DNA of 64,000 nucleotides from Escherichia phage EC148. Both the position numbers and the translations under genes were made by a program. This document shows positions 102-30,226 of this stretch, in pieces. The notes under the pieces are model-generated. The model worked only from the letters and a program-made list of their open reading frames with translations, was not told the origin of the DNA and did no database searches. Numbering within the stretch: position 1 is the first letter of the stretch; each line of letters opens with the position of its first letter. The DNA is taken from the sequence record NC_106721.1; one strand, written 5' to 3'.

Positions 102-179
102 TGGAAGCGGGTGCAGGAATCGAACCTACCTCTTTCTAGCTTATGAGACTAGCGATCTCTACCAGAGATCTAACCCGCA
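102..179 (-). tRNA. tRNA, anticodon CAU (Met/fMet- or Ile2-type)
   Basis: Cloverleaf folded by eye on minus strand: CCA encoded (plus 102-104 TGG), acceptor 106-112, T-arm 113-129 with T-loop TTCGATT, anticodon loop CTCATAA (plus 141-147); 1:72 pair appears unpaired (U-U). Confidence 0.5.
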
Positions 180-185
180 ATTGTT

Positions 186-261
186 TGGTCAGTGCGGCAG
201 GACTCGAACCTGCGACCCGAAGCATCCAAGGCTCCCACGCTACCAACTGCGCTACGCACTG
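186..261 (-). tRNA. tRNA-Pro (anticodon UGG)
   Basis: Perfect 7-bp acceptor stem (CAGTGCG/CGCACTG), T-arm GGTTCGAGTCC, anticodon stem GGAGC/GCTTC with loop CTTGGAT, CCA encoded. Confidence 0.7.
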
Positions 262-270
262 TTAATTCTT

Positions 271-468
271 TTATTGTGGAGGAATATTAATAATTCGTCC
301 GTCTACACAATAAACGGTACTAGGAATTGTACTATATATGTAGAAATTCTTTATATTACTCTCTCCGCCACAGAAATTTTTAGCAAATTCATACTCTTTA
401 TTAATGGTTGAGTCAAGTTTAAAACAACCAGTAAGTAGGAATACAGACAGCAGTAAAACTTTTTTCAT
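271..468 (-). CDS. small lipoprotein (signal peptide plus lipobox LLTGC), 65 aa
   Basis: N-terminus MKKVLLLSVFLLTGC; AGGAAA Shine-Dalgarno upstream; own promoter at 501-529. Confidence 0.55.
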   Translation of the reverse strand: MKKVLLLSVFLLTGCFKLDSTINKEYEFAKNFCGGESNIKNFYIYSTIPSTVYCVDGRIINIPPQ

Positions 469-500
469 TTTGCTTTCCTTCTCAACACTTTATAAGGTAT

Positions 501-529
501 ATTATACAGAGAATTAAGCATAATAGCAA
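501..529 (-). promoter_or_regulatory. sigma70-type promoter (minus strand) for the lipoprotein gene
   Basis: Read on minus strand: -35 TTGCTA, 17-nt spacer, -10 TATAAT, with A-rich upstream and extended TG. Confidence 0.6.
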
Positions 530-679
530 ATGAATTTTTAATAAATTTACTTATTGTGTAGGCCACCTGGAGGCTACCAACCCCACGGCTGACAAAGAAG
601 TTTGCGAGACCTCTCTTAAGTGCCAGAATAGACCCGCCGATCTATCGGAACCTACATAATAAGTAAACTTTATAGTGTC

Positions 680-799
680 ATTCTAGACAGGACTCGAACC
701 TGTTATCACTTGTGCGGACTTACGAGAACCATTCTTTCACTCGAATCGAACGAGCTTCTGCCCTCGCCAAGCTGGTTTCCCCATCAACCACGCTAGAAT
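680..799 (-). ncRNA. tRNA-like element, about 120 nt, not resolvable as a canonical tRNA
   Basis: Perfect T-arm ACAGG-TTCGAGT-CCTGT (plus 687-703) and an exact 7-bp acceptor-like pairing between plus 680-686 and 793-799, but 120 nt apart; second T-arm-like motif at plus 739-755. Confidence 0.25.
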
Positions 800-921
800 G
801 TTTGATTGTTTTCAGTGCAAGAGTCCGAGTCTTGGACACGACCGCTTCGCAAGTACATAGGCAGCTTATCATGAGTCAGCACTTCCGAATTGCTAGCTCC
901 GTGTTCTGCACTGAAATTTTA

Positions 922-1269
922 TTAGTTTAACCGTAAAGTATTATCTACTTCACCATTAATTGTTCGGCATTCTTCTGGGATTGCTGGTGTAGCCTTATAT
1001 TCCCACCATTCAGAACCGTCGTATTCACCACGTTCTAACCAAGTTCCATCAGTAAACCACACGTTACCATAAAGCAATTGCCCACCGAAACCAGAATCAT
1101 ATTTAAAGTCTAGATTATTTAGAAAATCTTCAATATCTTTTTCTGTATAACCTACGGGTAACACCCAAACTTCTTTGTCCCCATAATAACCGAATTCTAT
1201 CTTAATACACTTAACTTCAGAATTAATATTCTTTAAGGCAAGTAACAATTCTTCTTTAGCATTAATCAT
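922..1269 (-). CDS. hypothetical protein, 115 aa, Trp/Tyr/Gly-rich
   Basis: Intact ORF between tRNA genes on the same strand as the tRNAs. Confidence 0.5.
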   Translation of the reverse strand: MINAKEELLLALKNINSEVKCIKIEFGYYGDKEVWVLPVGYTEKDIEDFLNNLDFKYDSGFGGQLLYGNVWFTDGTWLERGEYDGSEWWEYKATPAIPEECRTINGEVDNTLRLN

Positions 1270-1295
1270 AGCATATTTCTCGTACTAGTTTAATT

Positions 1296-1372
1296 TGGCG
1301 CGACCGATGGGATTTGAACCCACATTCCCTCCCGTGACAGGGGAGTACCATTACCAAGCCAGCCCCGGTCGC
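1296..1372 (-). tRNA. tRNA-Asp (anticodon GUC)
   Basis: Acceptor GCGACCG/CGGTCGC perfect, T-loop TTCAAAT, anticodon stem CTCCC/GGGAG with loop CTGTCAC, CCA encoded. Confidence 0.65.
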
Positions 1373-1381
1373 ATAATTCAT

Positions 1382-1567
1382 TTACTCAGCTTTGAGTTTT
1401 TCAATAGCTGCATTAAGTTCTTTAAGAAACTTTTTTCGTACATTAAGACGGTTGAGACTTACTAGTATATCATGTTTAAGTTCTTCGATGTATTTCTTCT
1501 CAACTTCAATATTGTTGATAGTGCTATCACGATGAACTTCTAGCTGTGCAATTACATTCTTGGACAT
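1382..1567 (-). CDS. hypothetical small coiled-coil protein, 61 aa
   Basis: ORF with charged heptad-like sequence; co-oriented with neighbours. Confidence 0.4.
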   Translation of the reverse strand: MSKNVIAQLEVHRDSTINNIEVEKKYIEELKHDILVSLNRLNVRKKFLKELNAAIEKLKAE

Positions 1568-1669
1568 GCTTGTTTCCTCAGTTATTAATGAAAATGGTAT
1601 CTGTGACTGAATTCGATGTCAGCAATGATAGCTGGTTGGCTACCGGTTTACTTAACTCTACACAGAATT

Positions 1670-1753
1670 TGGCGGGCCGTGTAGGATTCGAACCTACGTT
1701 GTCTTTCGACATGGATTAACAGTCCACCGCCAAACCGCTTGGCTAACGACCCT
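1670..1753 (-). tRNA. tRNA with anticodon GUU (Asn-type) and a 13-nt variable arm
   Basis: Acceptor GGGTCGT/ACGGCCC, D-stem GCCA/TGGC, anticodon stem GTGGA/TCCAT with loop CTGTTAA, variable arm GTCGAAAGACAAC, T-arm GTAGG-TTCGAAT-CCTAC, CCA encoded; 84 nt. Confidence 0.5.
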
Positions 1754-1904
1754 AAATTTATATTGCTGACTAGGATTTTCACCTAGACGGAGTTAGCACC
1801 GTAGCGTGTAGCGGCATACCTCTCCAAACCGTGCCTCATCTTTCAATTACGGAGACAGTGTTCCTACGCGTGCCTGAATTGATTTAACAACTCTTTCAGC
1901 AAAT

Positions 1905-1980
1905 TGGACGACCGCATGAGATTTGAACTCACATAAAAAGGATTTGCAATCCTTCGCCTAAGCCATTCAGCCAACGGTCG
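1905..1980 (-). tRNA. tRNA-Cys (anticodon GCA)
   Basis: Acceptor with one G-U pair, T-loop TTCAAAT, anticodon stem AAGGA/TCCTT with loop TTGCAAA, CCA encoded. Confidence 0.65.
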
Positions 1981-2028
1981 ATTTATCTTGTTCTGTCATG
2001 TTGCTTCTCCAGTTCAATTTATGTAATT

Positions 2029-2057
2029 ATTATACAGAACTTTTGGAAACTAAGCAA
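2029..2057 (-). promoter_or_regulatory. sigma70-type promoter (minus) upstream of tRNA-Cys
   Basis: -35 TTGCTT / 17 nt / -10 TATAAT on minus strand. Confidence 0.55.
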
Positions 2058-2337
2058 CTACATTTTTTAAAAATTTGATGCCTTTCTTTTTCTTCTTATA
2101 TTTCCACGTTAAGGGATTCTGTCGATTATGAACGCTTGAGATCTTTGTCTCGTCAAAGTTCTTCAATATCATGTAATCACAGGATAATTGTTCTAATGGA
2201 ATGTGATCACCGTCAAAAGCGTATACATAAGGCTGTTGACTAGCACGATAATGATAGACTTTGTTAATTCTACGCTTCAGCAACTTATCCGCGCAGTAAA
2301 TAAAGAAGTTTTCAGGATGCATCAGCAGCTCCCTCAA
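2050..2337 (-). CDS. hypothetical protein, 95 aa
   Basis: ORF co-oriented with the tRNA island. Confidence 0.4.
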   Translation of the reverse strand: MRELLMHPENFFIYCADKLLKRRINKVYHYRASQQPYVYAFDGDHIPLEQLSCDYMILKNFDETKISSVHNRQNPLTWKYKKKKKGIKFLKNVVA

Positions 2338-2339
2338 TT

Positions 2340-2414
2340 TGGTGCACCCTGTTCGTATCGAACGAACCTCTCAAGCTCTTCAGGCAAGCGCTAATCCATC
2401 TCAGCTAAAGGTGC
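2340..2414 (-). tRNA. tRNA-like, anticodon not resolved (possibly CCU); may be degenerate
   Basis: Acceptor pairing plus 2344-2350 with 2408-2414 and perfect T-arm GTTCG-TTCGATA-CGAAC, CCA encoded; only a 4/5-bp anticodon stem could be found. Confidence 0.35.
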
Positions 2415-2420
2415 AAATTT

Positions 2421-2497
2421 TGGCAAACCTACTAGGACTCGAACCTAGACCGTACGGTTTTGGAGACCGACATGCTGTCCAGTAACACTCTAGGAAT
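2421..2497 (-). tRNA. tRNA-Trp (anticodon CCA)
   Basis: T-arm CTAGG-TTCGAGT-CCTAG, anticodon arm CGGT-CTCCAAA-ACCG closely resembling E. coli tRNA-Trp (from memory); acceptor stem has two U-U mismatches; CCA encoded. Confidence 0.5.
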
Positions 2498-2505
2498 GCA
2501 GGAAT

Positions 2506-2582
2506 TGGCGTCCTGTGCGGGGATCGAACCCACAAATCCTACCTTGAAAGGGTAGTGACTTTACCAGTTTGTCTAACAGGAC
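2506..2582 (-). tRNA. tRNA-Glu (anticodon UUC)
   Basis: Perfect acceptor GTCCTGT/ACAGGAC, T-loop TTCGATC, anticodon stem CTACC/GGTAG with loop CTTTCAA, CCA encoded. Confidence 0.7.
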
Positions 2583-2589
2583 TTAAATT

Positions 2590-2680
2590 TGGTGTTGGAT
2601 GATGGAGTCGAACCACCCGAGACCCTTCCGAGTCGGCAGATTTACAGTCTGCTTCGCTACCTCTACGATACTAATCCAAC
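2590..2680 (-). tRNA. tRNA-Tyr (anticodon GUA), about 18-nt variable arm
   Basis: Acceptor GTTGGAT/ATCCAAC perfect, anticodon stem GCAGA/TCTGC with loop CTGTAAA, extended variable arm forming a mini-hairpin, T-arm GGTGG-TTCGACT-CCATC; 91 nt. Confidence 0.6.
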
Positions 2681-2761
2681 ATATTTAAAAGTATTCAAAT
2701 ACTAGTTTAAACACTTTTAGATATGTTTCCAAATTAGATAACTATTATATCAAGTTTTATG

Positions 2762-2800
2762 GCACTGAGCAAGTCAAATTTTAAAGAACTTGCTCAGTGC
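2762..2800. terminator. 12-bp-stem hairpin (possible terminator) just downstream of the TGA-containing ORF
   Basis: GCACTGAGCAAG ... CTTGCTCAGTGC inverted repeat; weak T-run. Confidence 0.4.
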
Positions 2801-2808
2801 TGTATTAG

Positions 2809-3084
2809 TTAGTCGAACTTAGGAGCGACAGTTAAGGAGAATGGAAGTTCGAAAACTTCTTCGCCCTCATCACTAACAGTAATTACACGACCTTTAAGTT
2901 CAGACATTGAAATATCAATATCAGCTTTTGCATCTGGAGCCATGCCAGCTTCAATACATTTAGCTTTAACTTCCGGCAGAAGTTCTACATCGTAGAAATA
3001 AAGCCATTCAATCTCACCTTCCCAGCCTTCTCAGGATTTACAGATTGCACTTTCAATACCAGTTGCTATAACACGATTTTGCAT
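2809..3084 (-). CDS. hypothetical protein interrupted by an in-frame TGA at codon 18 (readthrough candidate or disrupted gene)
   Basis: ATG at plus 3084-3082 with GAAGGAG Shine-Dalgarno 7 nt upstream; frame reads MQNRVIATGIESAICKS-TGA-EGWEGEIEWLYFYDVELL... to TAA at plus 2811-2809. Confidence 0.35.
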
Positions 3085-3174
3085 TCGTTAACTCCTTCAT
3101 CAATTTATATAACTATTATACCAGAAATTTAAAGCAAAAGGCAAGTACATTTTTAAAAATTCTGTTTGGAGGAG

Positions 3175-3381
3175 CTAAACTCCAGATTCTTCAGCTAAGT
3201 CTAGGCTAATAAGAGATATAGCCATAATTGCTGCTCCGTGTTCTCTTTCTCCTGTCTCTTTAGCTAGGGTTATAATATCAAGAAATTGCTTATGAAAGTC
3301 TGCAACCTCTTGAGTCATACCTGCCTCAGCAATCATGCCTTTAAGCATGAAACGTTGTGCGGTAATTTCGGGATTAGCCAT
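3175..3381 (-). CDS. hypothetical protein, 68 aa
   Basis: ORF; start overlaps stop of upstream small ORF (ATGGCTAA arrangement). Confidence 0.45.
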   Translation of the reverse strand: MANPEITAQRFMLKGMIAEAGMTQEVADFHKQFLDIITLAKETGEREHGAAIMAISLISLDLAEESGV

Positions 3382-3541
3382 GTTGTTTCTCCAGTTTCAT
3401 GTTTAATAGTCTACAAATAAAATCAATGTCTTCATCTGTGCCTAGATCTCTATCTTCAAGAGTTGCCTTGAAGTTTTTCGTCAATTCCATGAGGATAACT
3501 TCTCTAGAACGACGTGTTGGCGGAGGTGGATGTCTATACAT
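3374..3541 (-). CDS. hypothetical small protein, 55 aa (MYRHPPPPTRR...)
   Basis: Hand-translated; AAGGAAA Shine-Dalgarno upstream; below the length cut-off of the supplied ORF track. Confidence 0.35.
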   Translation of the reverse strand: MYRHPPPPTRRSREVILMELTKNFKATLEDRDLGTDEDIDFICRLLNMKLEKQHG

Positions 3542-3556
3542 CTTATTTCCTTAAGT

Positions 3557-3633
3557 TGGTAGGGGTGGTGGGATTCGAACCCACAAAACCTGAATTTTAA
3601 GTCCAGTACCTATACCAATTCGATTACACCCCC
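3557..3633 (-). tRNA. tRNA with anticodon UAA (Leu-type anticodon) but short 5-nt variable arm
   Basis: Acceptor GGGGGTG/CACCCCT (one G-U), T-arm GTGGG-TTCGAAT-CCCAC, anticodon stem CTGGA/TTCAG with loop CTTAAAA, CCA encoded; D-stem poorly defined. Confidence 0.5.
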
Positions 3634-3734
3634 ATGTAATCAGTTTATTAGTTGATACATATTATAGCCTAGTGAAAATCCTACTACTAGTCCCACAAAC
3701 CAACCAATATAATAATCTTTTAGTTTCACAGGTA

Positions 3735-3920
3735 TTATCCTCGTTCAATATCTAGGGAAACACCGCAGTTAGGATTAATACCTGTACCGTTGCAATTTGA
3801 ACAAATCCAGATATTGCAAAAAGTATCTCCTGCTTCTGCATCAGAACTTTCACCAATTCCCCTACACTCAGGGCAGGCACATTCTTCTAGCTCTTGCTTG
3901 AGTTCTTGAAACTTGGACAT
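3735..3920 (-). CDS. Cys-rich zinc-ribbon-like small protein, 61 aa
   Basis: Paired Cys motifs CACPEC ... CSNCNG. Confidence 0.45.
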   Translation of the reverse strand: MSKFQELKQELEECACPECRGIGESSDAEAGDTFCNIWICSNCNGTGINPNCGVSLDIERG

Positions 3921-3929
3921 ATAGTCTCC

Positions 3930-4121
3930 TTAGTCAATTACTTTTGAGGCTTCAAGGGAGTCGATATAGTATACGTTTTCTACCATAATCATATAATCTG
4001 CCACTTTATCCATAGCTTGGGCCTCAGAGGTAGCTCTGGCTAACCTATATCCTTTTTTATATTCATCCGGGTATTCTCTATCTTGAATAAATACAACATA
4101 AACTATGTATAATTCCACTTG
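3930..4121 (-). CDS. hypothetical protein; start uncertain (possible GTG start)
   Basis: The supplied ORF 3930-4265 runs through tRNA genes at 4139-4216, so the true start must lie below about 4130. Confidence 0.3.
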   Translation of the reverse strand, partial: QVELYIVYVVFIQDREYPDEYKKGYRLARATSEAQAMDKVADYMIMVENVYYIDSLEASKVID

Positions 4122-4138
4122 TAATCCCCTAATTAAGT

Positions 4139-4216
4139 TGGTGGCTCCCCGAGGATTCGAACCTACGTACCTTCCGGTTATGAGCCGGGTGCTCATACCA
4201 TATGAGCTTGAGAACC
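4139..4216 (-). tRNA. tRNA, anticodon CAU (Met/Ile2-type)
   Basis: Acceptor with two G-U pairs, D-stem GCTC/GAGC, anticodon stem CCGG/CCGG with loop CTCATAA, weak 3-bp T-stem around TTCGAAT, CCA encoded. Confidence 0.5.
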
Positions 4217-4222
4217 AGAATT

Positions 4223-4311
4223 TGGCGGAAGAAGTGGGAATCGAACCCACAAGGCTATATTTCAAACCGACAGATTAGCAATCTGCTGCAATACCGTTAT
4301 GCTATTCTTCC
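4223..4311 (-). tRNA. tRNA-Ser (anticodon GCU), type II
   Basis: Perfect acceptor GGAAGAA/TTCTTCC, anticodon stem GCAGA/TCTGT with loop TTGCTAA, long variable arm, T-arm GTGGG-TTCGATT-CCCAC; 89 nt. Confidence 0.65.
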
Positions 4312-4326
4312 GAATTTATAAGATAT

Positions 4327-4355
4327 ATTATATTAGAAATTTAGCTTCATAGCAA
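4327..4355 (-). promoter_or_regulatory. sigma70-type promoter (minus) driving the tRNA-Ser / tRNA-CAU cluster
   Basis: -35 TTGCTA / 17 nt / -10 TATAAT on minus strand, directly upstream of the tRNA at 4223-4311. Confidence 0.6.
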
Positions 4356-4851
4356 GAAAATTTTTCAAGTTTTCGGTAGACATCTCATCCACATCTACGG
4401 GAGAAACAAAGCCGTTTAATTTTCTAGCAAATTTTTCACCCGCAGGATCGTTGTCTCCGACAGCTACCAATTTAAAAGGTAATAATTTCAGTTGCTTTAA
4501 TAACGCTTTTCCTGGAGAAGAACCTAACATTGCCAGGGCTGGATAACCAGCGTTATGTAGCGCAACTGCCTTAAATACAGATTCAGCGATCAATACTACT
4601 TTTTCATCTCCATTGAGAGTTTCTAGTCCCCATACACACTGGGTAGTAGAATAAGTAAAATATTTAGCTTCAAAGGGACACTTACCATGACCTTTTGGAG
4701 CAGAAGGATTATACGTCTGATAGCCTCGCAACATCCCGGAGAAGTCATACAACGGGACTGTTAGCCATCCTTCCGGACTTAACCAGCAATGATATTTATC
4801 TGTATCAAATCCTCTGGATAAGAGGTGCTGTGTTAGCTCATCAACATTCAT
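4333..4851 (-). CDS. Toprim-domain protein (DnaG-like catalytic core, no zinc finger)
   Basis: Conserved Glu in VVLIAESVF and DxD in LVAVGDNDPAGEKFARKL; start set at MNVDEL because the promoter at 4882-4910 lies inside the longer ORF. Confidence 0.55.
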   Translation of the reverse strand: MNVDELTQHLLSRGFDTDKYHCWLSPEGWLTVPLYDFSGMLRGYQTYNPSAPKGHGKCPFEAKYFTYSTTQCVWGLETLNGDEKVVLIAESVFKAVALHNAGYPALAMLGSSPGKALLKQLKLLPFKLVAVGDNDPAGEKFARKLNGFVSPVDVDEMSTENLKNFLAMKLNF

Positions 4852-4881
4852 ATTTGGTTCCTCTCTCAAATTTATAGATAT

Positions 4882-4910
4882 ATTATACAGAGAATTTAGC
4901 ATTCAAGCAA
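4882..4910 (-). promoter_or_regulatory. sigma70-type promoter (minus) for the Toprim-protein gene
   Basis: -35 TTGCTT / 17 nt / -10 TATAAT on minus strand. Confidence 0.55.
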
Positions 4911-5025
4911 TCAAATTTTTTAACTTTTTAGAGGAAAATCATAGGGCACTTAAGGGTAGCAGATAAGTGGGGAGGACCAAAATTTGTGACCCCACTAAAA
5001 ATCCGGGGGCAATTTTTAAAGACCC

Positions 5026-5054
5026 CTTGACATTTTCGCTGGGGTAGTGTAAAG
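5026..5054 (+). promoter_or_regulatory. sigma70-type promoter for the plus-strand three-gene cassette
   Basis: -35 TTGACA (5026-5031), 17-nt spacer, -10 TAAAGT (5049-5054). Confidence 0.55.
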
Positions 5055-5117
5055 TATATGTTATGGATGAGTGATCAAAGAGACACACATTTTCTATATA
5101 CTAGGAGGTGTCAAAAT

Positions 5118-6107
5118 ATGACAGAAGAAGTAGCTAAGAGTCCTGAGACCGTCGCTAGCGTTGCAGCAGAACTGCACAGTCACGAGGAATCAGATAAGAA
5201 AAAGTGGGAGAAGGTCAGAGCCTACGAAGAAAAACATCGTGAACACGATGATGAAGAAGAAGATGACGATGATGAACATTGTCATAAATATGGAAAACAT
5301 AAAATGCAAGAACCAGTAAACGTATTCACTAGTGGCTTCCCTGGCCTACTGGGTGGTTACCCAGCAAACGCAGGTGCTTTCGGTGGTGAAGGTATGGGAC
5401 TATTCGGAGCTATCCTAATCGGTGCTCTATTAACCGGCGGATTCGGTGGTTTCGGTGGATTCGGTGGACGTGGTGTAGTTGGTGAAGGTACCGCAGTTGA
5501 TGCAGTACTTCAGAACCAAGATACCGCTAGTATTCTAGCAGCTATCAACACTACTCGTACAGAGGCTAACCAGGGTACTGGAGCTGTTTTAAGCGCAGTT
5601 AACAATGGTTTTAGCCAGACAACCCAAAACCAGAGCCGTGATACTCAGTCTGTACTAACTACGATCTACGGTACAGGTGCTAATCTGTCTAATCAGATCT
5701 GCCAGGAAACTCGCAACGTTATTCAGGGTCAGTTCGATCTTTCTCGCCAGATTGATCAATCTTTCGCAGCTAACCAGATAGCTCGTGCACAAGATAAGTT
5801 TGATTCTGCACAGATCGCTTTCCAGCAGACTTTACAAACTAATAACCAGTTTGCCGCTGTTCAGGCTCAGATGTGTGCTAACCAGAACTCTCTGGAACGT
5901 CAGATCGCTGAATGTTGCTGTGAACTTCAGACTGCGATCGCTGGTGTAACTACTGCGCGTATCCAGGATGAGTTAGACGCATGTCGCCTACGTGAAGCAA
6001 TCGCTGCGGGTAGCGGTGCTAACGGTCAGGTAATTAATCAAATCGCTTTAAGTCTTGGTGCTATCACTCAGACTCTGGCTGGTCTGCAGGCTAAACTGCC
6101 GGCTTAA
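5118..6107 (+). CDS. hypothetical low-complexity protein: polyacidic N-terminus, Gly-zipper hydrophobic segment, Gln/Asn/Thr-rich C-terminal region with Cys cluster
   Basis: Strong RBS TAGGAGGTG before ATG 5118; promoter at 5026-5054; translation-optimised codon choice; no recognisable catalytic motif. Confidence 0.6.
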   Translation: MTEEVAKSPETVASVAAELHSHEESDKKKWEKVRAYEEKHREHDDEEEDDDDEHCHKYGKHKMQEPVNVFTSGFPGLLGGYPANAGAFGGEGMGLFGAILIGALLTGGFGGFGGFGGRGVVGEGTAVDAVLQNQDTASILAAINTTRTEANQGTGAVLSAVNNGFSQTTQNQSRDTQSVLTTIYGTGANLSNQICQETRNVIQGQFDLSRQIDQSFAANQIARAQDKFDSAQIAFQQTLQTNNQFAAVQAQMCANQNSLERQIAECCCELQTAIAGVTTARIQDELDACRLREAIAAGSGANGQVINQIALSLGAITQTLAGLQAKLPA

Positions 6108-6128
6108 TATTAAGGGGAGGAGCCCATT

Positions 6129-6545
6129 ATGAGTAAATATGGTTTTGTAAATAACGGACTTAATCAAAGTATGGGCTCCCAGCAGCCCATTCCGGGTCTG
6201 GATAACCCCTACTTACAACAGTTGCAACAGCGTTTAGCAGAAGCGCAACAGATGCAGCAACAACTCCAGCAAAACCCTGGAAGTGTGAGTCCTATGCAAA
6301 TGATGCAGCAAATGAGCGGGCAGTCGCAAATGCCTCAACAAATGCAGCAACAGGTGCCTCAGCAGCAAGTTCAGCAACAAACCCAACAACCGCAGGTTTC
6401 TGCGGAAGGACAGGCAGTACTAGCCCTTTTCGAAGACTTCGCAAAGACAGAGGATGGGAAACAGCTTGTATCACTTATGGGTAAGTTTAATAGCTTCTGC
6501 CAAAGCCAAGTTGCAAAAGCTCAAAATGGGGGTAGTAACTCCTAA
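6129..6545 (+). CDS. hypothetical Gln-rich protein, 138 aa
   Basis: RBS AAGGGGAGG; Q-rich repeats (PQQMQQQ...). Confidence 0.6.
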   Translation: MSKYGFVNNGLNQSMGSQQPIPGLDNPYLQQLQQRLAEAQQMQQQLQQNPGSVSPMQMMQQMSGQSQMPQQMQQQVPQQQVQQQTQQPQVSAEGQAVLALFEDFAKTEDGKQLVSLMGKFNSFCQSQVAKAQNGGSNS

Positions 6546-6554
6546 GGAGGAAAT

Positions 6555-6749
6555 ATGTGTTGCAGAAAATCTGTTTCGTGCTGCCCAGTGCCTGTAGCAC
6601 GTTGTTGCTCTCCAGCAATGTTTACGCAAATACCGGCGTTCAATCCCTTTGCCTTTAAGCCTACTCTTATCCTGCCCCCTAGAGTAGATTTTCAGTCAAG
6701 ATTGGCCTCCCGTATGGGTGGTTGCTGTACACCGAGAGTATGGTTCTAA
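6555..6749 (+). CDS. hypothetical Cys-rich small protein, 64 aa
   Basis: RBS AAGGAGG; 8 Cys including CC pairs; followed by terminator hairpins. Confidence 0.55.
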   Translation: MCCRKSVSCCPVPVARCCSPAMFTQIPAFNPFAFKPTLILPPRVDFQSRLASRMGGCCTPRVWF

Positions 6750-6761
6750 ACCAAAAACAAA

Positions 6762-6795
6762 AGCCCCTGCCGAAAGGTAAGGGGCTTTTTCTTTT
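6762..6795 (+). terminator. rho-independent terminator ending the plus-strand cassette
   Basis: AGCCCCT...AGGGGCT hairpin followed by TTTTTCTTTT. Confidence 0.65.
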
Positions 6796-6799
6796 GCCT

Positions 6800-6840
6800 T
6801 AAATACAGAAAAGCCCGCGCTCTCGTAGGAAACGCGGGCT
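6800..6840 (-). terminator. rho-independent terminator for the SPFH gene (convergent with the previous one)
   Basis: GCCCGCG...CGCGGGC hairpin followed on minus strand by TTTTCTGTATTT. Confidence 0.6.
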
Positions 6841-20644: not shown

Positions 20645-21406
20645 TTACACCTTCCCCATGTCTTTAAAGATGTCATAGAATGCTTTAGACTCAACAGAAC
20701 GAACGTTATCAATCAATTCGATCATTGAGAATGGGGCATTTTCGTATTTCTCATAGACTTCCATAAGGAGTGCTAGACCTGAGTCACCTTTAATGTCTTT
20801 CTGAGCTATATCTCCGCAGATAATTAAACGGCAGTCTTGCCCTACACGAGTTAGAAGACAAATCATTGCCTCAACGGAAATATTCTGAGCTTCATCGACA
20901 ATTACATAGGAGTTGTTGAAAGTTCTGCCACGAGCATGTTCGACAGCCAAAAATTTAATTTTCTGACGTTCGACATATCCCTTATAGGCATGATCGCCGA
21001 TGGCCCATTTCATACCATCAGCTATTGGCTCCAACCAAGGCTCTAGCTTTTCTGCTAGATCACCAGGAAGCATACCAAGAGACTTACCTAGAGGTTCATT
21101 AGGACGTACGAGGATCACTTGCTCAATATCTGAGTGAATGTCTACGAGTTCCTGAGCTGCAAGAACGGACGGAATAAAGGTTTTACCAGTACCTGGCTCA
21201 CCGATGCCCACAGTCACTGTGTTGTTCTTGATCATATTGATATATGATTTTTGCTCGCGGTTTTTACCTACTAGGGATTTAGCAACTGGGTTAGCGTAAT
21301 CATTAGAAAAATCAGCCTGAATTACGTTATTCTCATACTTGTTGCCACGCTTTCTTGAACCATTGCGGTTCTCTCTTTTTTGACGTGCTTTTCCCATAAA
21401 TAACAC
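20645..21406 (-). CDS. phoH: PhoH-like ATPase
   Basis: Walker A GEPGTGKT and VIVDEAQN Walker B. Confidence 0.85.
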   Translation of the reverse strand: MLFMGKARQKRENRNGSRKRGNKYENNVIQADFSNDYANPVAKSLVGKNREQKSYINMIKNNTVTVGIGEPGTGKTFIPSVLAAQELVDIHSDIEQVILVRPNEPLGKSLGMLPGDLAEKLEPWLEPIADGMKWAIGDHAYKGYVERQKIKFLAVEHARGRTFNNSYVIVDEAQNISVEAMICLLTRVGQDCRLIICGDIAQKDIKGDSGLALLMEVYEKYENAPFSMIELIDNVRSVESKAFYDIFKDMGKV

Positions 21407-21470
21407 TCCTATAGTGTACTTCGCTAACAGAGGATCAACAAAAAGATCTTGTTTATCAACTTACAAATAT

Positions 21471-21499
21471 ATTATACCAATATATACAGTAAAAAGCAA
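21471..21499 (-). promoter_or_regulatory. sigma70-type promoter (minus) upstream of phoH
   Basis: -35 TTGCTT / 17 nt / -10 TATAAT on minus strand; divergent from the nrdD promoter. Confidence 0.55.
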
Positions 21500-21691
21500 C
21501 TACAATTTTAAATAAGCCTATGATATTGCATTTAAATAAAAAATTTGCTTGCTTTTAACGTGAGATGTGTGATACTAGATAATCATTTTATATCGCGTGC
21601 ACGAGTGCGTGATTATACAATTTTTAATAGAGATTGGCAAATAAAATTTTTTGACTCAGATCATGTTACAGAACTTTATAGTAAAATATTG

Positions 21692-21720
21692 TTGACATCC
21701 ACCCTCGAATGAGTTATAAT
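21692..21720 (+). promoter_or_regulatory. consensus sigma70 promoter upstream of nrdD
   Basis: -35 TTGACA (21692-21697), 17-nt spacer, -10 TATAAT (21715-21720). Confidence 0.7.
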
Positions 21721-21749
21721 AGTAGTCTTAGTTAGAGAAGGAGAGTATA

Positions 21750-23624
21750 ATGAATCGCAATGAAGAACTAAAGTATAAAGAAATGCAGGCGTTAATTAGA
21801 AACTGCAAAGAGATTATCGAAGGGTCAGCAGATGAAGAGCTGCTGTTTAATAATGCCAATAAACCCTCAGAACGTTTCCCTACACAGAGGGATATGCTTG
21901 CAGGTGAATTGAGTAAGTATCTGATTCTAGAAGAAATGCCAATTCAGATTCGAAATGCTCATATGATTGGGGATATTCATTTCCATGATGCTGATTATGC
22001 TGCATTAGGCATGACTAATTGTTGTCTGGTAGCTCTGGAAGATATGTTGAAGAATGGTATGAAGGTTGGTAATGCTGAAATTAGCACTCCAAACTCTATC
22101 ACTACTGCGGCAGCTATTACAGCTCAGATTATCACACAGGTTAGCTCCCATCAGTATGGTGGTACTTCCGTGGATCGCCTTGATGAAGTATTAGCTCCTT
22201 ATGTTCGTAAATCCTATGACAAAAATCATGCGTTTGCAAAACGTTGGACTAAAGATGAGGCCAAAGCATCAGTAATGGCTACGGAGATGACTGAAAAAGA
22301 AGTTTATGATGCCTGTCAGGGTCTAGAATATGAAATCAATACCATGTTCAACTCTAATGGTCAGAGTCCATTTATTACCTTTGGTTTTGGTCTAGGAACT
22401 TCTTGGGAAGCACGTCTAGTACAGAAAGCAATACTGAAAGTACGCATGGATGGCTTAGGTATCAATAAACGTACAGCTATCTTCCCGAAACTGGTATTTG
22501 TACTTCGTGATGGCGTTAACATGAAACCAGGAGATGTTAATTATGACATCAAGAAGTTAGCTATGAAATGTACTGCTGAACGTATGTATCCAGATTATAT
22601 CAGCTATGATAAGGTTGTGGAAGTTACTGGTGACTATAAAGTTTCTATGGGCTGCCGTTCATTCCTAGCTGCTACAGAAGATGGTGAAACTGCCGGTCGT
22701 AATAACTTAGGTGTTGTTTCTGTAAACTTGCCTAGAATTGCTATCGAAGCTGAAGGAAATATTGATCTATTCTTTGATTTGCTTGAGCTACGTGTGGATA
22801 CAGCATTAAAAGCGTTGGAGTGGAGAGTTGATCGCTTAAAATACATTCAAGCTAAAGCTGCACCCATCCTCTATATGTCAGGAGCCTTTGGACTGCGCTT
22901 GGAGCCTGATGAATACGTATTCGATCATTTCTATAACCGTGCTTCTGTATCTCTAGGATATATTGGTTGTCATGAAATGCTACAGTTCATGTTTGGCAAA
23001 GATGTAGACACAATGTCCGAGACCAGCATCAAGTTTGTTCAGCGTGTATTGCAGTACATGCGAGATAGAGTCGATCAGAAGAAGGAAGAAACTAAGTTAG
23101 GTTATAGCCTGTATGCTACACCGTCAGAGTCCCTGTGTGATAGGTTTTGCCGTTTAGATCGTGAATATTTCCCGGAGCATGAAGATATTCTGTCCAAAGG
23201 ATACTACACTAACTCTCACCACCTTGATGTGGAACGTAAAGTTGCTCCCAATGTGAAATTTGATTATGAATCTAACTTTACTCCGATTGCTTCTGGTGGG
23301 TGTATTTCCTATGTAGAACTACCGGATATGAAACGATTCCCAGATGCACTAGAATGGGTTATTAATTATGCTGCTAGTAAAGTTCATTACTTCGGTATTA
23401 ATACTCCAGTGGATTCTTGTGGTAAATGTGGATTCTTAGGTGAAACAATAGCATCCGAAGATGGATTTAAGTGCCCTATCTGTGGTAATCATGACCCCGA
23501 AACTCTTGAAGTAACTCGTCGAGTTTGTGGGTATCTTGGAAATCCAGGTGCTCGTCCATTTAACCCAGGCAAACAGCATGAGGTTATGGGCAGGGTGAAA
23601 CATCAGGATATTCGAGCTAAGTAA
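21750..23624 (+). CDS. nrdD: anaerobic ribonucleoside-triphosphate reductase (class III)
   Basis: C-terminal glycyl-radical motif RVCGYLG and CxxC...CxxC zinc ribbon; promoter TTGACA-17-TATAAT at 21692-21720. Confidence 0.85.
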   Translation: MNRNEELKYKEMQALIRNCKEIIEGSADEELLFNNANKPSERFPTQRDMLAGELSKYLILEEMPIQIRNAHMIGDIHFHDADYAALGMTNCCLVALEDMLKNGMKVGNAEISTPNSITTAAAITAQIITQVSSHQYGGTSVDRLDEVLAPYVRKSYDKNHAFAKRWTKDEAKASVMATEMTEKEVYDACQGLEYEINTMFNSNGQSPFITFGFGLGTSWEARLVQKAILKVRMDGLGINKRTAIFPKLVFVLRDGVNMKPGDVNYDIKKLAMKCTAERMYPDYISYDKVVEVTGDYKVSMGCRSFLAATEDGETAGRNNLGVVSVNLPRIAIEAEGNIDLFFDLLELRVDTALKALEWRVDRLKYIQAKAAPILYMSGAFGLRLEPDEYVFDHFYNRASVSLGYIGCHEMLQFMFGKDVDTMSETSIKFVQRVLQYMRDRVDQKKEETKLGYSLYATPSESLCDRFCRLDREYFPEHEDILSKGYYTNSHHLDVERKVAPNVKFDYESNFTPIASGGCISYVELPDMKRFPDALEWVINYAASKVHYFGINTPVDSCGKCGFLGETIASEDGFKCPICGNHDPETLEVTRRVCGYLGNPGARPFNPGKQHEVMGRVKHQDIRAK

Positions 23625-25986: not shown

Positions 25987-26415
25987 ATGTTCAATAATGT
26001 ATTCTCTAAAGAAGCTAACCCAATTTTGGTTAACTTTTGGCGTACTCTACCGGCTAGCCTGTATAATGAGGCTATTAACTCCTTGAAAATATGGTGTGAG
26101 AATAACGAAATCTCCTTTGCTTTTAAAGATGATATTGATGAGGCCCCCTGTATTGGTTTAATTGTGCAGGTAGAGGATGGTCTTGAAGAGATTGTGGGCT
26201 GGAAAGAGTTAGACGAAATGGGCTTAGTTTTTGCGTTAAATTATAAGCTGTTTATGCCTGCTAAGCATCGCCTTGTTGTTAACTATAAAACTAGTGAATC
26301 TCCTGGTTTTCAGGTTAATGAACGTTATGGTTGGTCTTACTCACCGGAAGAAGTAAATGAGGGGATTCAGAAACTTCGACGTTTCGGGTATATGATCCCA
26401 GGTTTAACTGCTTAA
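25987..26415 (+). CDS. hypothetical protein, paralogue A of a tandem pair
   Basis: Shares architecture and C-terminal ...GYMIPGL motif with the next ORF. Confidence 0.5.
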   Translation: MFNNVFSKEANPILVNFWRTLPASLYNEAINSLKIWCENNEISFAFKDDIDEAPCIGLIVQVEDGLEEIVGWKELDEMGLVFALNYKLFMPAKHRLVVNYKTSESPGFQVNERYGWSYSPEEVNEGIQKLRRFGYMIPGLTA

Positions 26416-26424
26416 GGAGGCAGA

Positions 26425-26817
26425 ATGGAACAAGTATATTGGCGTCAGATTGATCCTAGTTTGGTGAAACGTGCGGAGAAGCTGCTACAACGTTGGTTGG
26501 GGGTAAGACAAGCCTCCTTCACTTTTCCGGAGCAGCAAATAGATGATCCCTGTGTTGGTGTTTTCCTATCCGGCTACGCGGGGGAATGGGAGTTGGATTG
26601 GAATGAGTTGTCTGCTATGGGTTTAATTGTTGCCCTAAATTTCTCTTTGTTCCACCCACGTGGTTTGGCCATATGTCGTGTGTCGGATGATGGTTGTTCG
26701 CCCCATCTTTTACAGGTGGAAGATGATATTTGGGAGTACACTCCAGATATTCTCAAAGAAGCTAAAGAACAATTAAACCGTGTTGGGATTTATGTTCCAG
26801 GCTTAAATGATGAATGA
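26425..26817 (+). CDS. hypothetical protein, paralogue B of a tandem pair
   Basis: RBS AAGGAGG; ...GIYVPGL C-terminus; MGL(I/V)xALN(F/Y)xLF core shared with the previous ORF. Confidence 0.5.
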   Translation: MEQVYWRQIDPSLVKRAEKLLQRWLGVRQASFTFPEQQIDDPCVGVFLSGYAGEWELDWNELSAMGLIVALNFSLFHPRGLAICRVSDDGCSPHLLQVEDDIWEYTPDILKEAKEQLNRVGIYVPGLNDE

Positions 26818-26908
26818 TTTTTATTAGCTGAACTCTGATTACCGAGTCATTTTGGCTCGGTTTTATCCGTACTCAAGACCAATGATAGCACCATCCGGAA
26901 AATTTTAC

Positions 26909-26937
26909 TTGCAGGATGCCCAAAATCTTGATATAAT
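26909..26937 (+). promoter_or_regulatory. sigma70-type promoter (plus) heading the long leader upstream of the helicase-like gene
   Basis: -35 TTGCAG / 17 nt / -10 TATAAT. Confidence 0.5.
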
Positions 26938-27436
26938 ATTTATATTGAATTGAGAGACATTAGTAAAAATTGATTTTGCTAATTTTTCTTGTTTACAATC
27001 CGCGATACGGAACAGTTAGGCTGCCCCATTAAGGGTTGTTTTAACTGTTACGTGTTAGTTTTTAAACAAATAGTTAATAGAATACTTAGCGATCTGCGTC
27101 CCATAGGAACCCTGGTAAGGCCTCGAAGCAACCTAGTATGAGGTGGTTGTGAAGTGAGATGGGAGGAGTGAAAAACTCCGAGACGTGATTCTGTAAGTTA
27201 TATTGCATCTAGTATGAGCTAGTATATGAAGCATTAGGTGAGCAAATCTGGCTTAGCGGCCATCCTCAAGGATTTGTGCGATATAGCAAAGCAGCAGCGC
27301 AGCGTGAAAGTGGAAGTTGCCACCCCCCTTCAGTATTTGCGATTAATTTGTTGAGAAATTGACAGTAACAGTTGTTCTATTCTTTCTGAATAGTCCTAAA
27401 GAAAACTTATTTTATTTCCAACACAGGAGTATTGTT

Positions 27437-30226
27437 GTGTTCTCAATCCTACAAGGTCATGCAGGATTTCATCGCGATTTAGCCACAGGCAATTGGCGAG
27501 AAGTTAAAGCAGAAGACTATCTTTTTGCTAAAAGATTTTCCTCAAAGCATCCTGAAGGTAAACCAGCCTCAATGCCCTTCAAGTTTGATGTAATTGATGA
27601 AGTTGATCCTCAAACCCTAGTAGAAATGCTTCCTCTTATGAGACGTTTAACGTCTGACCCTCATATCGTTGCGGTACGAGGTCGATGTCTTGCACCTAAA
27701 AATAATGTGCGACGTAAGAAGGGCAACTTTAATGTATCTAATCCAAGTCATATAATTGCAATGGACGTGGATGGTATTGTAGATACAGGTGGTTGTAACA
27801 AGTTTGATCTTGTTGGCATGGCTCGACATATTATTAGGATGTTAAATAGTATTAGTGAGGATATGTTTCCTCTTGATGCAGGGTTTATCGCTCATGCATC
27901 GTCTTCGGCTGGGCTAAAACCAGGTATCCGAATGCACTTAATACTAGAATCTAATGTTAAAGTAACTCAGGGTCAAATCAAATTCTTATTTACATCTATC
28001 AATGAAAGTAGTAGACAAAAGTACGGCTTTGATATTGCCGACTTAGCTTATTACTCTTCCGTACAGCTCCATTATTTTGCAGATCCGTTATTTACTGATG
28101 GTATAGTAGATCCGTTTAAGGCGGAGGGTGCTTCACGTCTGGTATTTGTTAAAGGTTCTAAAGTAAATTTACCAAATAATCTGGTTGACTATGAAACAAC
28201 TAGAGGTGAGTTTAAGGAGGAGTTTTACTCTTTACTCGATCAAATTAAAGGTAAAAAAGCTGCCTCTGATAAAGTAGAGGAAACTATCAGCGAACTAGAA
28301 GAAGCTGAGGATGGGGTGTACTTGCGTATTATCCCCAAACTATACCATAGAGCATTAGAGGATGGTGTTGATTTTGCATGGCTAGAAAAAGAAATCCGTC
28401 CAGCCTTATCAGAATATATCGCAACTAAAGATAACAGTCGTAATATTCAAGATTATTTTAATAACGGTCGTAAGCAGGCTCTGAAAGCGTTTGTTAATAA
28501 TTCTAAACGCGATATACCCGATATTTTAAAAGGTATTCCACTTAAAAAGCTAGAAACTAATTCTCTAGAAACTGATAATTTCTTGAAACTAAATACTGTG
28601 CCACCAGAAGGTTATATGACTTTTGTAAAAGCGAGTTTAGGCACAGGTAAAACCACGGCGGTTGTGCGTTGGTTAGATTCAGGAGTTATTAAAGGTAATT
28701 TTTTAGCAATTACCAATACTAGAGCACTGGTATCTTCAAATGCTAAGAAATTTAGTGCAGGACAATACGATAAGTCTGTAGATATGCTTAATTTTAAGCG
28801 TGGTGCTATTGACCGTATGTCCACAACTATTCACTCTTTGCATAAGTTCAAGAGTTTTATTGGTCAAATTGATGCAATCTTTATCGATGAATGTGATGCA
28901 GTAATGAACGACCTATTATTCGCCCCGGTTGTTAAACAACGTCGTGAATGTATTCAGGTTCTTCGGGATATTCTTGCAACTGCAAAAATCATTATATTAT
29001 CTGATGGGGATATTAGTGCAGAAACAATTGAAGCATATGGTTCTTTGATTGAGTTTGATAAACCGGTTGCATTTTATAATCATCACCGTAAAATGCTATC
29101 AAAAGCTCATGCTTATGAGTTCCCTGATGAATCCAGTATTTGGGTTGCACTTCAGACTTCTCTAGAGATGGGTGAGAAATCTATCCTAGTATCTGACTGT
29201 GGGCCAGATGAACTGAATGAGAAGGGCATGGCATTGCGTCGTAATACGGGTGCGTTAGTTAAGGAAATCCACTCAAACTCTACATCTGATGTGGATATTA
29301 GACGTATTCTGGATTATACAACTAATGAGCTAATTGACCAACAAATTGATTGCTTATTATGTAGTCCATCCGTAACGAGTGGAGTTGACTTCAACTATTT
29401 TGATAACGTATTTGTTATTACTAGAACTAGTAACCAGGCGCCAAACATGCGTTTCCAAGCAATCAGGCGCGACCGTGGTGCTCAGAATATTTATTATTTT
29501 ATTGATAAATCTACGAGTGGATTCTCCGCAGGTTCTGAACAATATAACATTGATGAAGGTTGGCTGGAATTAGCACAGCAATTATACGCACGTCGTAGGG
29601 AGCTGGAGTCTAGGAACTATACTAGTACTTTACGTTATTACTTGCTTGATCAGGGTGCAACTATTGATATTTTCAGTGAAAGCTGGGGAAATATCGAAGG
29701 TGCAGGAAAAGAGTACACGGAAGAGCGAATCAAAGCCATTTTGTATTCAACTCCTGATTATTGTGCTCCACGCCATGCAGATGCGTATGAAGCTAAACTA
29801 CTTCTTGTTCGCTACTATCATCTTGAGTCTATCAAAGATGTAACAGTTGAGCATGTTGAACAATATATCAAGGATAAACCGAATGATCGAGCGGCATTCT
29901 TCCATAAGATGCACGAGATGTTCTGGGAGGATATTAAGAAGTGTTCAAATGTCACTATCAAACCATTCATAGAAGCTCTGAAAGGTAAGAAGAAAGATTT
30001 CTTCCTTAAAACAGGTCAAAGTGCTAACCCAAAATATGCCAGAATGTATCTTGGTATGATGGGTATTGGTAAGGATATGAACACGGAGAATATTGTAGAC
30101 TGGTACAGAACTTATTGTAAAATCGAGTGTATGCCAATCCCATATAAGTTTATGACTGATGAGGAAAAACATATGCATGATGAAGCAATGGCAGAGCTAG
30201 GTGCTAGAAATGACAGTGAAGAATAA
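27437..30226 (+). CDS. large Walker-A/DExD helicase-like protein (possible replication-origin-binding helicase)
   Basis: Walker A SLGTGKTT and FIDECD motif; start set at GTG 27437 with RBS AGGAG; the supplied ORF begins at 27359. Confidence 0.55.
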   Translation: MFSILQGHAGFHRDLATGNWREVKAEDYLFAKRFSSKHPEGKPASMPFKFDVIDEVDPQTLVEMLPLMRRLTSDPHIVAVRGRCLAPKNNVRRKKGNFNVSNPSHIIAMDVDGIVDTGGCNKFDLVGMARHIIRMLNSISEDMFPLDAGFIAHASSSAGLKPGIRMHLILESNVKVTQGQIKFLFTSINESSRQKYGFDIADLAYYSSVQLHYFADPLFTDGIVDPFKAEGASRLVFVKGSKVNLPNNLVDYETTRGEFKEEFYSLLDQIKGKKAASDKVEETISELEEAEDGVYLRIIPKLYHRALEDGVDFAWLEKEIRPALSEYIATKDNSRNIQDYFNNGRKQALKAFVNNSKRDIPDILKGIPLKKLETNSLETDNFLKLNTVPPEGYMTFVKASLGTGKTTAVVRWLDSGVIKGNFLAITNTRALVSSNAKKFSAGQYDKSVDMLNFKRGAIDRMSTTIHSLHKFKSFIGQIDAIFIDECDAVMNDLLFAPVVKQRRECIQVLRDILATAKIIILSDGDISAETIEAYGSLIEFDKPVAFYNHHRKMLSKAHAYEFPDESSIWVALQTSLEMGEKSILVSDCGPDELNEKGMALRRNTGALVKEIHSNSTSDVDIRRILDYTTNELIDQQIDCLLCSPSVTSGVDFNYFDNVFVITRTSNQAPNMRFQAIRRDRGAQNIYYFIDKSTSGFSAGSEQYNIDEGWLELAQQLYARRRELESRNYTSTLRYYLLDQGATIDIFSESWGNIEGAGKEYTEERIKAILYSTPDYCAPRHADAYEAKLLLVRYYHLESIKDVTVEHVEQYIKDKPNDRAAFFHKMHEMFWEDIKKCSNVTIKPFIEALKGKKKDFFLKTGQSANPKYARMYLGMMGIGKDMNTENIVDWYRTYCKIECMPIPYKFMTDEEKHMHDEAMAELGARNDSEE

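Follow-up and report, generated by a model that had tools for sequence, protein, structure and literature searches.

A large structured RNA at the 5′ leader of the D1 helicase gene in T5-like phages, with two exchangeable core alleles

In leaders processed by RNase III, such as the lambda N leader, the T7 early-mRNA sites and the 16S/23S stems, a near-continuous dsRNA stem is formed from the flanks of a structured RNA, and cutting frees the enclosed RNA and remodels the 5′ end of the message. The large noncoding RNAs ROOL, GOLLD, OLE, HEARO and raiA span several hundred nucleotides and combine many covarying helices with invariant unpaired motifs; ROOL and GOLLD are associated with phages, and ornate RNAs comparable to the present one oligomerize. 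ColE1 RNA II and the leaders of plasmid rep genes are folded RNAs of ~500 nt that are transcribed from a strong promoter at a replication locus, and their structure sets the activity of the initiator or primer. In phages P4 (CI RNA) and P1/P7 (C4), a functional RNA of ~70–80 nt acting as an antisense regulator is cut from the leader of a replication or antirepressor operon, which in P4 is that of the primase-helicase alpha. The gene 32, gene 43 and regA operators of T4 are 5′ RNA structures of 20–40 nt on replication-gene messages.

The RNA described here, encoded upstream of the D1 helicase gene of T5-like phages, resembles the RNase III-processed leaders in having such a flanking stem, in lying upstream of a coding region and in following a strong early promoter. 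However, its cleavage is only predicted, the enclosed RNA is neither an rRNA nor a simple hairpin, and no sequence relationship exists. It has the length, the covarying helices and the invariant unpaired motifs of the ornate noncoding RNAs and is likewise associated with phages, but matches no Rfam model, occurs as two interchangeable alleles and forms the 5′ leader of a single replication gene instead of a free-standing gene near tRNAs; its carriers are strictly lytic phages of Enterobacterales. Compared with ColE1 RNA II, no antisense partner, origin signature, RNase H site or G/C-rich hybrid motif was identified, and T5-type phages are lytic with a linear genome. The Rfam C4 model fails on the D1 leader, and T5 lacks an immunity of the lysogeny type. 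Like the T4 operators, the D1 leader is a 5′ structure of a replication-gene message and possibly protein-bound for dosage, but it is more than 10 times larger and lies mostly far from the ribosome binding site (RBS).

T5 is among the classical model phages; phages related to it are isolated widely for use in therapy and biocontrol. The window, the whole stretch of 64,000 nucleotides from Escherichia phage EC148 (NC_106721.1) that was analysed, belongs to a T5-like phage: positions 26800–27500 are 100% identical to Escherichia phage T5_ev212 and 95–99% identical to many Tequintavirus records. The locus is made up as follows.

26425–26817: DUF7415 gene, upstream neighbour of the gap
26841–26866, + strand: intrinsic terminator of the upstream operon, an inverted repeat (stem 26841–26849 / 26853–26861) followed by a T run
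26909–26937, + strand: sigma-70 early promoter (−35 TTGCAG at 26909–26914, 17-nt spacer, −10 TATAAT at 26932–26937)
27419–27439, + strand: D1 translation initiation region (RBS AGGAG at 27425–27429, start codon GTG at 27437)
27437–30226, + strand: D1 helicase, annotated 'replication origin binding', 929 aa, matching PHROG 3712 over its full length

The terminator sequence is annotated as such in T5 (NC_005859) and in Lindwurm. The promoter that the original prediction had placed at 26909–26937 is present and has the same sequence as a 75-nt feature labelled 'promoter' in the T5 reference (NC_005859, 58999–59073); this reference annotates terminator, promoter and then nothing until D1. It has an extended −10 element (TG; TGATATAAT at 26929–26937). 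A simple consensus scan missed it because its −35 box matches at three of six positions only; TTGC-N17-TATAAT is kept across the Markadamsvirinae lineages examined. Judged from the promoter, transcription of the D1 leader probably starts near A26944. At the downstream end, the suspicion that the supplied start at 27359 lacks an RBS and that D1 truly begins at GTG 27437 was borne out: the MFSILQGH N-terminus and the RBS are kept in all relatives, GTG 27437 is the annotated start in most records, and we regard the TTG at 27359 as an artefact of ORF calling. Just upstream of the terminator and promoter lies a paralogous gene pair (25987–26415 and 26425–26817) with two DUF7415 repeats in each gene, labelled 'phage exonuclease' in one record.

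By mechanical ORF calling, the ORF-free stretch 26818–27358 (541 nt) is the longest in the window outside the tRNA cluster. Its GC content is indeed above that of its surroundings, as predicted, with 0.44–0.47 at 27000–27300 compared with 0.31 just upstream and 0.37–0.41 in D1. Homologous loci were gathered from IMG/VR, metagenomes and GenBank phages with the D1 N-terminus as a handle. A promoter-to-start leader of 485–617 nt was found in every lineage whose D1 is at least 61% identical, including Escherichia, Salmonella and Klebsiella phages, Pantoea phage AAS21, Pectobacterium phages My1 and DU_PP_V, Proteus phage Stubb and Providencia phage PR1. In every lineage found, it lies directly upstream of D1 on the same strand. 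The alignments show short invariant islands (RUACRGAACRGUYNGGCYGC, GAUCU, GCUUAGCGGC and the RBS region) between stretches that are constant in length and variable in sequence, a pattern typical of a structured RNA. Thus conservation and structure in related phages, whose lack the original prediction had named as evidence against itself, were both found.

The RNA family is secure for Markadamsvirinae-type phages of Enterobacterales. The Proteus and Providencia phages are probable members, a placement made on the UUAGCGG motif and on an architecture obtained by folding only. The covariance model R1 did not recognize the leaders of Proteus, Providencia, Serratia (Kamaji), Vibrio and Aeromonas phages, and model R2 reached only E = 0.75 on the Providencia leader, so that the motif alone carries homology beyond Markadamsvirinae. 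The Vibrio T5-like phages are too clonal for covariation analysis (285 of 289 at ≥99% identity). No second copy of the leader RNA was detected elsewhere in the window, and searches with the leader in 5,426 E. coli genomes and in the PLSDB plasmids returned nothing. A scan of bacterial genomes with the motif RUACRGAACRGUYNGGCYGC returned 26 matches in unrelated taxa, the best of which (Photobacterium) overlaps an ORF end, and a scan of IMG/VR with GATCT...GCTTAGCGG returned at least 120 matches, none confirmed by R1; both sets were treated as chance.

The gap is best explained as the 5′ leader of the D1 mRNA, a large structured RNA transcribed from a conserved early promoter. The curated structure comprises 149 pairs with −119.7 kcal/mol, compared with −135.9 kcal/mol for the minimum free energy fold, and the folding z-score of the leader is −2.6. 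Its elements are these.

26952–26990, + strand: P1, 5′-terminal hairpin (GAGAGA/UUUCUU plus AUUAGUAAAA/UUUUGCUAAU)
26995–27039, + strand: Pa, irregular hairpin with the near-invariant motif RUACRGAACRGUYNGGCYGC at 27005–27024 and the apical stem CAGU/GCUG
27042–27086, + strand: 5′ strand of the P2 rod (P2, P2a, P2b, P2c, P2d), pairing with 27332–27374
27052–27364, + strand: exchangeable cassette, all that the P2 core helix encloses, type A here and type B in T5
27089–27305, + strand: core domain, closed by P3 (GCG-AU-CUGCG / CGCAG-CGU)
27099–27164, + strand: P4 three-way junction, inside the core
27165–27179, + strand: P5, inside the core
27191–27294, + strand: P6/P6b, inside the core
27243–27276, + strand: P7, inside the core
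27250–27261, + strand: P8, 3-bp covarying stem with the invariant hexaloop UUAGCG (GGCUUAGCGGCC)
27310–27323, + strand: P9, hairpin GUGG-AAGUUG-CCAC at the junction of P2d and P3
27332–27374, + strand: 3′ strand of the P2 rod, partner of 27042–27086
27377–27393, + strand: P10, hairpin CUAUUC-UUUCU-GAAUAG with no U run after it

P1 is AU-rich, and the U-rich 3′ strand of P1 is itself paired. The hairpin begins ~6–8 nt past the inferred transcriptional start site, even in a relative with a different promoter, and 12 of its 19 aligned pairs are changed on both sides (MAFFT-only alignment). In Pa, the helices Pa2 and Pa3 show A-U to G-C covariation. The rod has 39 bp in total (P2 10, P2a 11, P2b 7, P2c 4 and P2d 7 bp); P2 to P2c are broken by single-nucleotide irregularities, and an internal loop precedes P2d. 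The rod closes a core of ~250 nt that consists of helices P3 to P9. P3 pairs 27089–27098 with 27298–27305 and keeps its AU bulge, and the core also holds the J motif GAGAYGUG. The stem of P8 covaries (GGC/GCC, AGC/GCU, GAC/GUC), and the P8 motif is also found in the Proteus and Providencia phages. P10 covaries as well (UACUAU/AUAGUA, CUAUC/GAUAG, CUUUCC/GGAAAG). A weak hairpin, CAACA/UGUUG, surrounds the RBS and start of D1 and appears as AACAU/AUGUU in the Klebsiella lineage; ~45 nt and the separate hairpin P10 lie between P2 and this RBS. No intrinsic terminator was called within 26938–27436.

Some further elements were considered and rejected. A switch in which 27007–27018 would pair with 27042–27053, so that the Pa 5′ strand and the P2 3′ strand compete for 27042–27051, is not conserved in other lineages. 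Two tertiary pairings were inspected by eye, a GCUGC/GCGGC pseudoknot and a kissing interaction of the P8 loop with the P6b loop; neither had consistent support across lineages. An internal promoter-like site at 26970–26999 is not conserved outside Tequintavirus and Epseptimavirus.

To evaluate the fold, pairing was compared with that obtained when the partners were slid against each other. A global MAFFT alignment misaligned the core, with a one-column shift at P7/P8 and displacement of the Klebsiella lineage, and the core was realigned with covariance model R1 (18 distinct sequences). In this alignment, which leans towards structure because it is model-fitted, 91.4% of the cells pair compared with 29–42% in the slid controls, and 40 of 55 pairs show changes on both sides compared with 6–13. 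The observed pairing of the core was reached in none of 500 shuffles. With four core lineages aligned by MAFFT only, RNAalifold recovered 56 pairs, 32 of them with compensatory changes. The 5′ domain, likewise aligned with MAFFT only, pairs at 91.4% versus 40–50% when slid, with both sides changed in 16 of 28 pairs.

For the rod, an alignment-free comparison was possible. Duplexes formed by a lineage's own P2 arms reach −27.5 to −37.8 kcal/mol versus typically −7 to −21 kcal/mol for arms of unrelated lineages; arms from sister lineages score as well as own arms. The core helix of P2 reads AACUGUUAC/GUAACAGUU in the window versus AACUAUUAC/GUAAUAGUU in most type-B phages, and GCUACUAC/GUAGUGGC in AAS21 versus GAUUAUUAUAC/GUAUAAUAAUU in DU_PP_V. 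The arms of the rod thus co-evolve in at least six lineages. All lineages have P9, P10 and the RBS hairpin, built from different stem sequences. In the window, 20 of the 149 pairs are G·U or U·G, and several of these are kept as G·U. Since conserved G·U pairs would be A·C on the other strand, the constraint is on pairing in the + strand RNA, and the + strand is the one transcribed by the leader promoter. The inverted repeats noticed originally are thus genuine RNA helices in comparative analysis. The RNA folding and covariance analysis that had been proposed gave strong covariation in core, 5′ domain and rod, and as to structure the suggested 5′ leader or riboregulator is strongly supported by covariation in every helix and a constraint specific to the + strand.

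A comparison of the window with T5 revealed an abrupt exchange of sequence. Identity is 100% at 26900–27050, falls to 26–38% at 27100–27350 and is ~80% afterwards, P8 being the only conserved island inside the swapped cassette. The break-points of identity fall on the P2 core helix, and hence the unit that was exchanged is precisely the segment inside P2. Type A, the allele of the window, spans 80% or more of the leader in 162 of the 442 records that matched and is nearer to the core of the distant Pantoea phage AAS21 (~75% BLAST identity; 219 bits with R1) than to type B. Type B occurs in T5 and Epseptimavirus-type phages in 13 variants, all of 331 nt, with substitutions that are almost all compensatory or compatible with G·U; R1 gives only 5–8 bits on type-B cores, in the right place and with filters off. 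Both types share the layout of rod, P3, P6, P7, P8 and P9. The alleles occur in otherwise near-identical genomes, are deeply diverged and differ at most unpaired positions. The N-terminal sequence of D1 does not co-vary with core type at depth, and there is therefore no sign of co-adaptation between RNA and D1. These sequence patterns point to the core as a self-contained RNA module that has been swapped between lineages by recombinational exchange at P2.

Database searches did not identify the RNA. With Rfam 15 at gathering thresholds, only tRNAs were found in the whole window, and a permissive search of 26780–27520 with E up to 10 gave three matches at chance level (E ≥ 2); the Rfam search that had been suggested thus returned no family for the leader at either setting. 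The families covered included riboswitches, introns, RNase P, tmRNA, 6S, C4, GOLLD, ROOL, OLE, HEARO, raiA and others. ARAGORN detected no tRNA or tmRNA in the leader, all of its 12 genes lying at 102–7921 on the − strand. No description of the D1-leader RNA was found in the literature searched, in which subscription journals were thinly covered and older T5 work could be missed. The leader represents a new RNA family; large structured leaders and noncoding RNAs as such are known, and the unusual feature here is cassette-like allelic replacement. With ~430 nt and ~149 covariation-supported pairs, a family that was missing from RNA databases and genome annotations is now open to modelling and annotation.

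What the RNA does is less certain than its fold. The reading that we prefer, and to which we give an even chance, is that the leader controls or processes the D1 mRNA post-transcriptionally in cis. The RNA would be transcribed from the early promoter, starting near 26944, and would read into D1 as a unit isolated by the upstream terminator, with no terminator between RNA and D1. Located right at the 5′ end, P1 would act as a stabilizer that protects the D1 message. Host RNase III would cut the P2 rod, which is expected because the rod has the length and regularity of a substrate: the ~20 bp or more of near-continuous dsRNA that characterize RNase III stems are present in P2 and are kept by the co-evolution of its arms. 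After such a cut, the core would no longer be joined to the D1 message, which would keep a short, P10-capped leader and would be altered in stability or translation. The invariant unpaired motifs are candidates for protein or tertiary contacts; a factor of the phage or the host would bind to the Pa loop, the AU bulge of P3 and the UUAGCG loop in P8 and, through these single-stranded motifs, would set the level or timing of the helicase. The leader RNA is a concrete handle on the expression of D1, an essential replication helicase, or on the start of replication, and the swapped core alleles provide a natural experiment on its role.

Some observations do not favour cis-control. There is no sign of RNA–D1 co-adaptation at the D1 N-terminus, and a size of 430 nt and ~149 bp, far above that of known translational operators, is at least equally compatible with an independent function. 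An expression platform was not found in the leader, which contains no terminator and no conserved alternative pairing, and a GC-rich hairpin followed by a U run, as in an intrinsic-terminator attenuator, is likewise missing.

Possible, with clearly less weight than cis-control, is that the core is a gene of its own, whose product is a stable noncoding RNA of ~290 nt. This RNA would be excised via the P2 rod, much as RNase III frees rRNAs from their precursors, and would work in trans, perhaps as a scaffold, a decoy or an anti-defence RNA, its link to D1 being no more than a shared promoter. Size and ornateness resemble those of free-standing large RNAs, a long closing helix joins the ends, and the core is swapped as a discrete cassette bounded exactly by P2. 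Core type shows no dependence on the D1 N-terminus at depth, and the presence of two ancient alleles in near-identical genomes is a pattern typical of conflict or specificity loci. However, this RNA keeps its place directly upstream of D1 and on the same strand in every lineage found, its core has neither a promoter nor a terminator of its own, no copy was detected elsewhere in the window or in E. coli genomes or plasmids, and a stable RNA of such size was not found in the literature searched. As for the small RNA that the original prediction had offered as one option, the core might be processed to an RNA of ~290 nt, but no terminator precedes D1. We tentatively consider that the region might hide an ornate, P2-excised and trans-acting RNA gene of ~290 nt whose two ancient, interchangeable alleles are kept by balancing or conflict-driven selection; if so, the RNA could serve replication initiation or evade or provoke host RNA-sensing immunity.

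It is unlikely that the leader works in the manner of a riboswitch and ties the synthesis of D1 to a metabolite, for instance to the nucleotide pool. The leader does contain a covariation-supported multi-helix domain with invariant unpaired nucleotides in a 5′ UTR, as would a sensor domain, and a weak conserved hairpin lies at the RBS and start codon of D1. But no Rfam riboswitch matches at E ≤ 10, no terminator or antiterminator was detected, nor was there a conserved alternative pairing that would connect closing helix and RBS, and P2 and RBS are ~45 nt apart with a separate hairpin between them. In addition, the core is two to three times the size of a typical aptamer, and the alleles differ at most of the unpaired positions.

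Equally improbable is a replication origin, in which the transcript primes DNA synthesis, as with ColE1 RNA II, T4 oriF/oriG or the T7 primary origin, or the DNA is the binding site of D1. Classical electron-microscopy work reportedly placed the first-round origin of T5 near the centre of the genome, and the leader, at ~59.0–59.5 kb of the 121.75-kb T5 genome, is near this centre. It adjoins a gene annotated as an origin-binding helicase, a strong promoter reads through it, and ColE1 RNA II provides a precedent for a folded primer RNA of ~550 nt. Against this, there are no iterons but only weak two-copy direct repeats, and the region is GC-richer than its surroundings, with no AT-rich unwinding block except a 25-nt linker. 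Moreover, the constraint is on single-strand pairing of the + strand with G·U, not on duplex DNA. The sign of the GC skew changes near 22 kb, ~5 kb upstream, and the skew is positive across the leader. The 'origin binding' label of D1 reflects similarity of the helicase domain only: Pfam Herpes_ori_bp matches residues 394–533 and PDB chains of herpesvirus OBP match residues 388–532, whereas residues 1–390 (window 27437–28606) matched no Pfam domain. The label thus stands without a recognized DNA-binding domain, because only residues 388–533 resemble the helicase core of herpesvirus OBP; other records call D1 'helicase' or 'DNA primase'. A T5 origin defined at the sequence level was not found in the literature searched, and the skew-based 'origin' of phage phiLLS is ~3 kb away from the leader (PMC5519627). 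With no iterons, no AT-rich block and a skew change elsewhere, the origin proposed in the original prediction found no direct support. The skew flip itself lies at window positions ~21400–22000, beside an ORF-free gap of 343 nt (21407–21749). This switch near 22 kb probably marks where early gene blocks transcribed in opposite directions diverge, and on composition the region is a better origin candidate than the D1 leader.

That the gap holds small protein-coding genes, as several public records annotate, is hardly credible: 50-aa (26989–27141) and 38-aa (27238–27354) ORFs exist mechanically and mini-CDSs are annotated in some GenBank records, but these ORFs are missing or different in close relatives and have neither a PHROG match nor an RBS, and substitutions in the leader track base-pairing, not codons. 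They are the only + strand ORFs in the gap, neither being conserved among relatives nor matched in PHROGs, and no ORF of at least 30 aa is present in the Epseptimavirus-type and Proteus leaders, in agreement with the earlier view that no credible ORF lies between the promoter and GTG 27437. In public records such as L002 (PP735124; 1553–2055), L007 (PP925828; 315–677 and 774) and L006 (819), three or four mini-CDSs are annotated in the leader, one of them on the opposite strand, or D1 is begun 78–125 nt too far upstream. These mini-CDSs and overlong D1 starts look like annotation artefacts of an RNA-coding region. Recognizing the leader RNA corrects the D1 start, removes false CDSs in many public records and gives content to the longest noncoding stretch outside the tRNA region, which so far was left blank or filled with spurious mini-genes.

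Besides the leader, further ORF-free gaps were observed in the early region at 10202–10601 (400 nt) and 11283–11588 (306 nt). Two matches to the Rfam tRNA model, at 4142–4216 (− strand, 40.3 bits) and 8424–8495 (− strand, 35.5 bits), are absent from the ARAGORN output; both are located within the tRNA cluster at 102–8495.

The region around P1 varies among the relatives. An insertion of ~97 nt is found right after P1 in DT57C (~452–550 of locus L010) and also in S126 (L011), EH1 and JLBYU43; it is flanked by direct repeats of TTTTTCTT and is itself capable of forming a hairpin. Its presence alongside type-A as well as type-B cores raises the possibility of a small module within the leader that is mobile or duplicated. 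In IMGVR_UViG_2706796320 (L070, ~870–1010), the module of promoter plus P1 is present twice in tandem, and in L057 (~950–1010) a different promoter is fused to this P1, with the spacing from the −10 box unchanged. Finally, in Salmonella phage oselot (L006, 436–466) a ATTTTGCTA unit is repeated three times in the 3′ strand of P1 and is annotated as a repeat_region.
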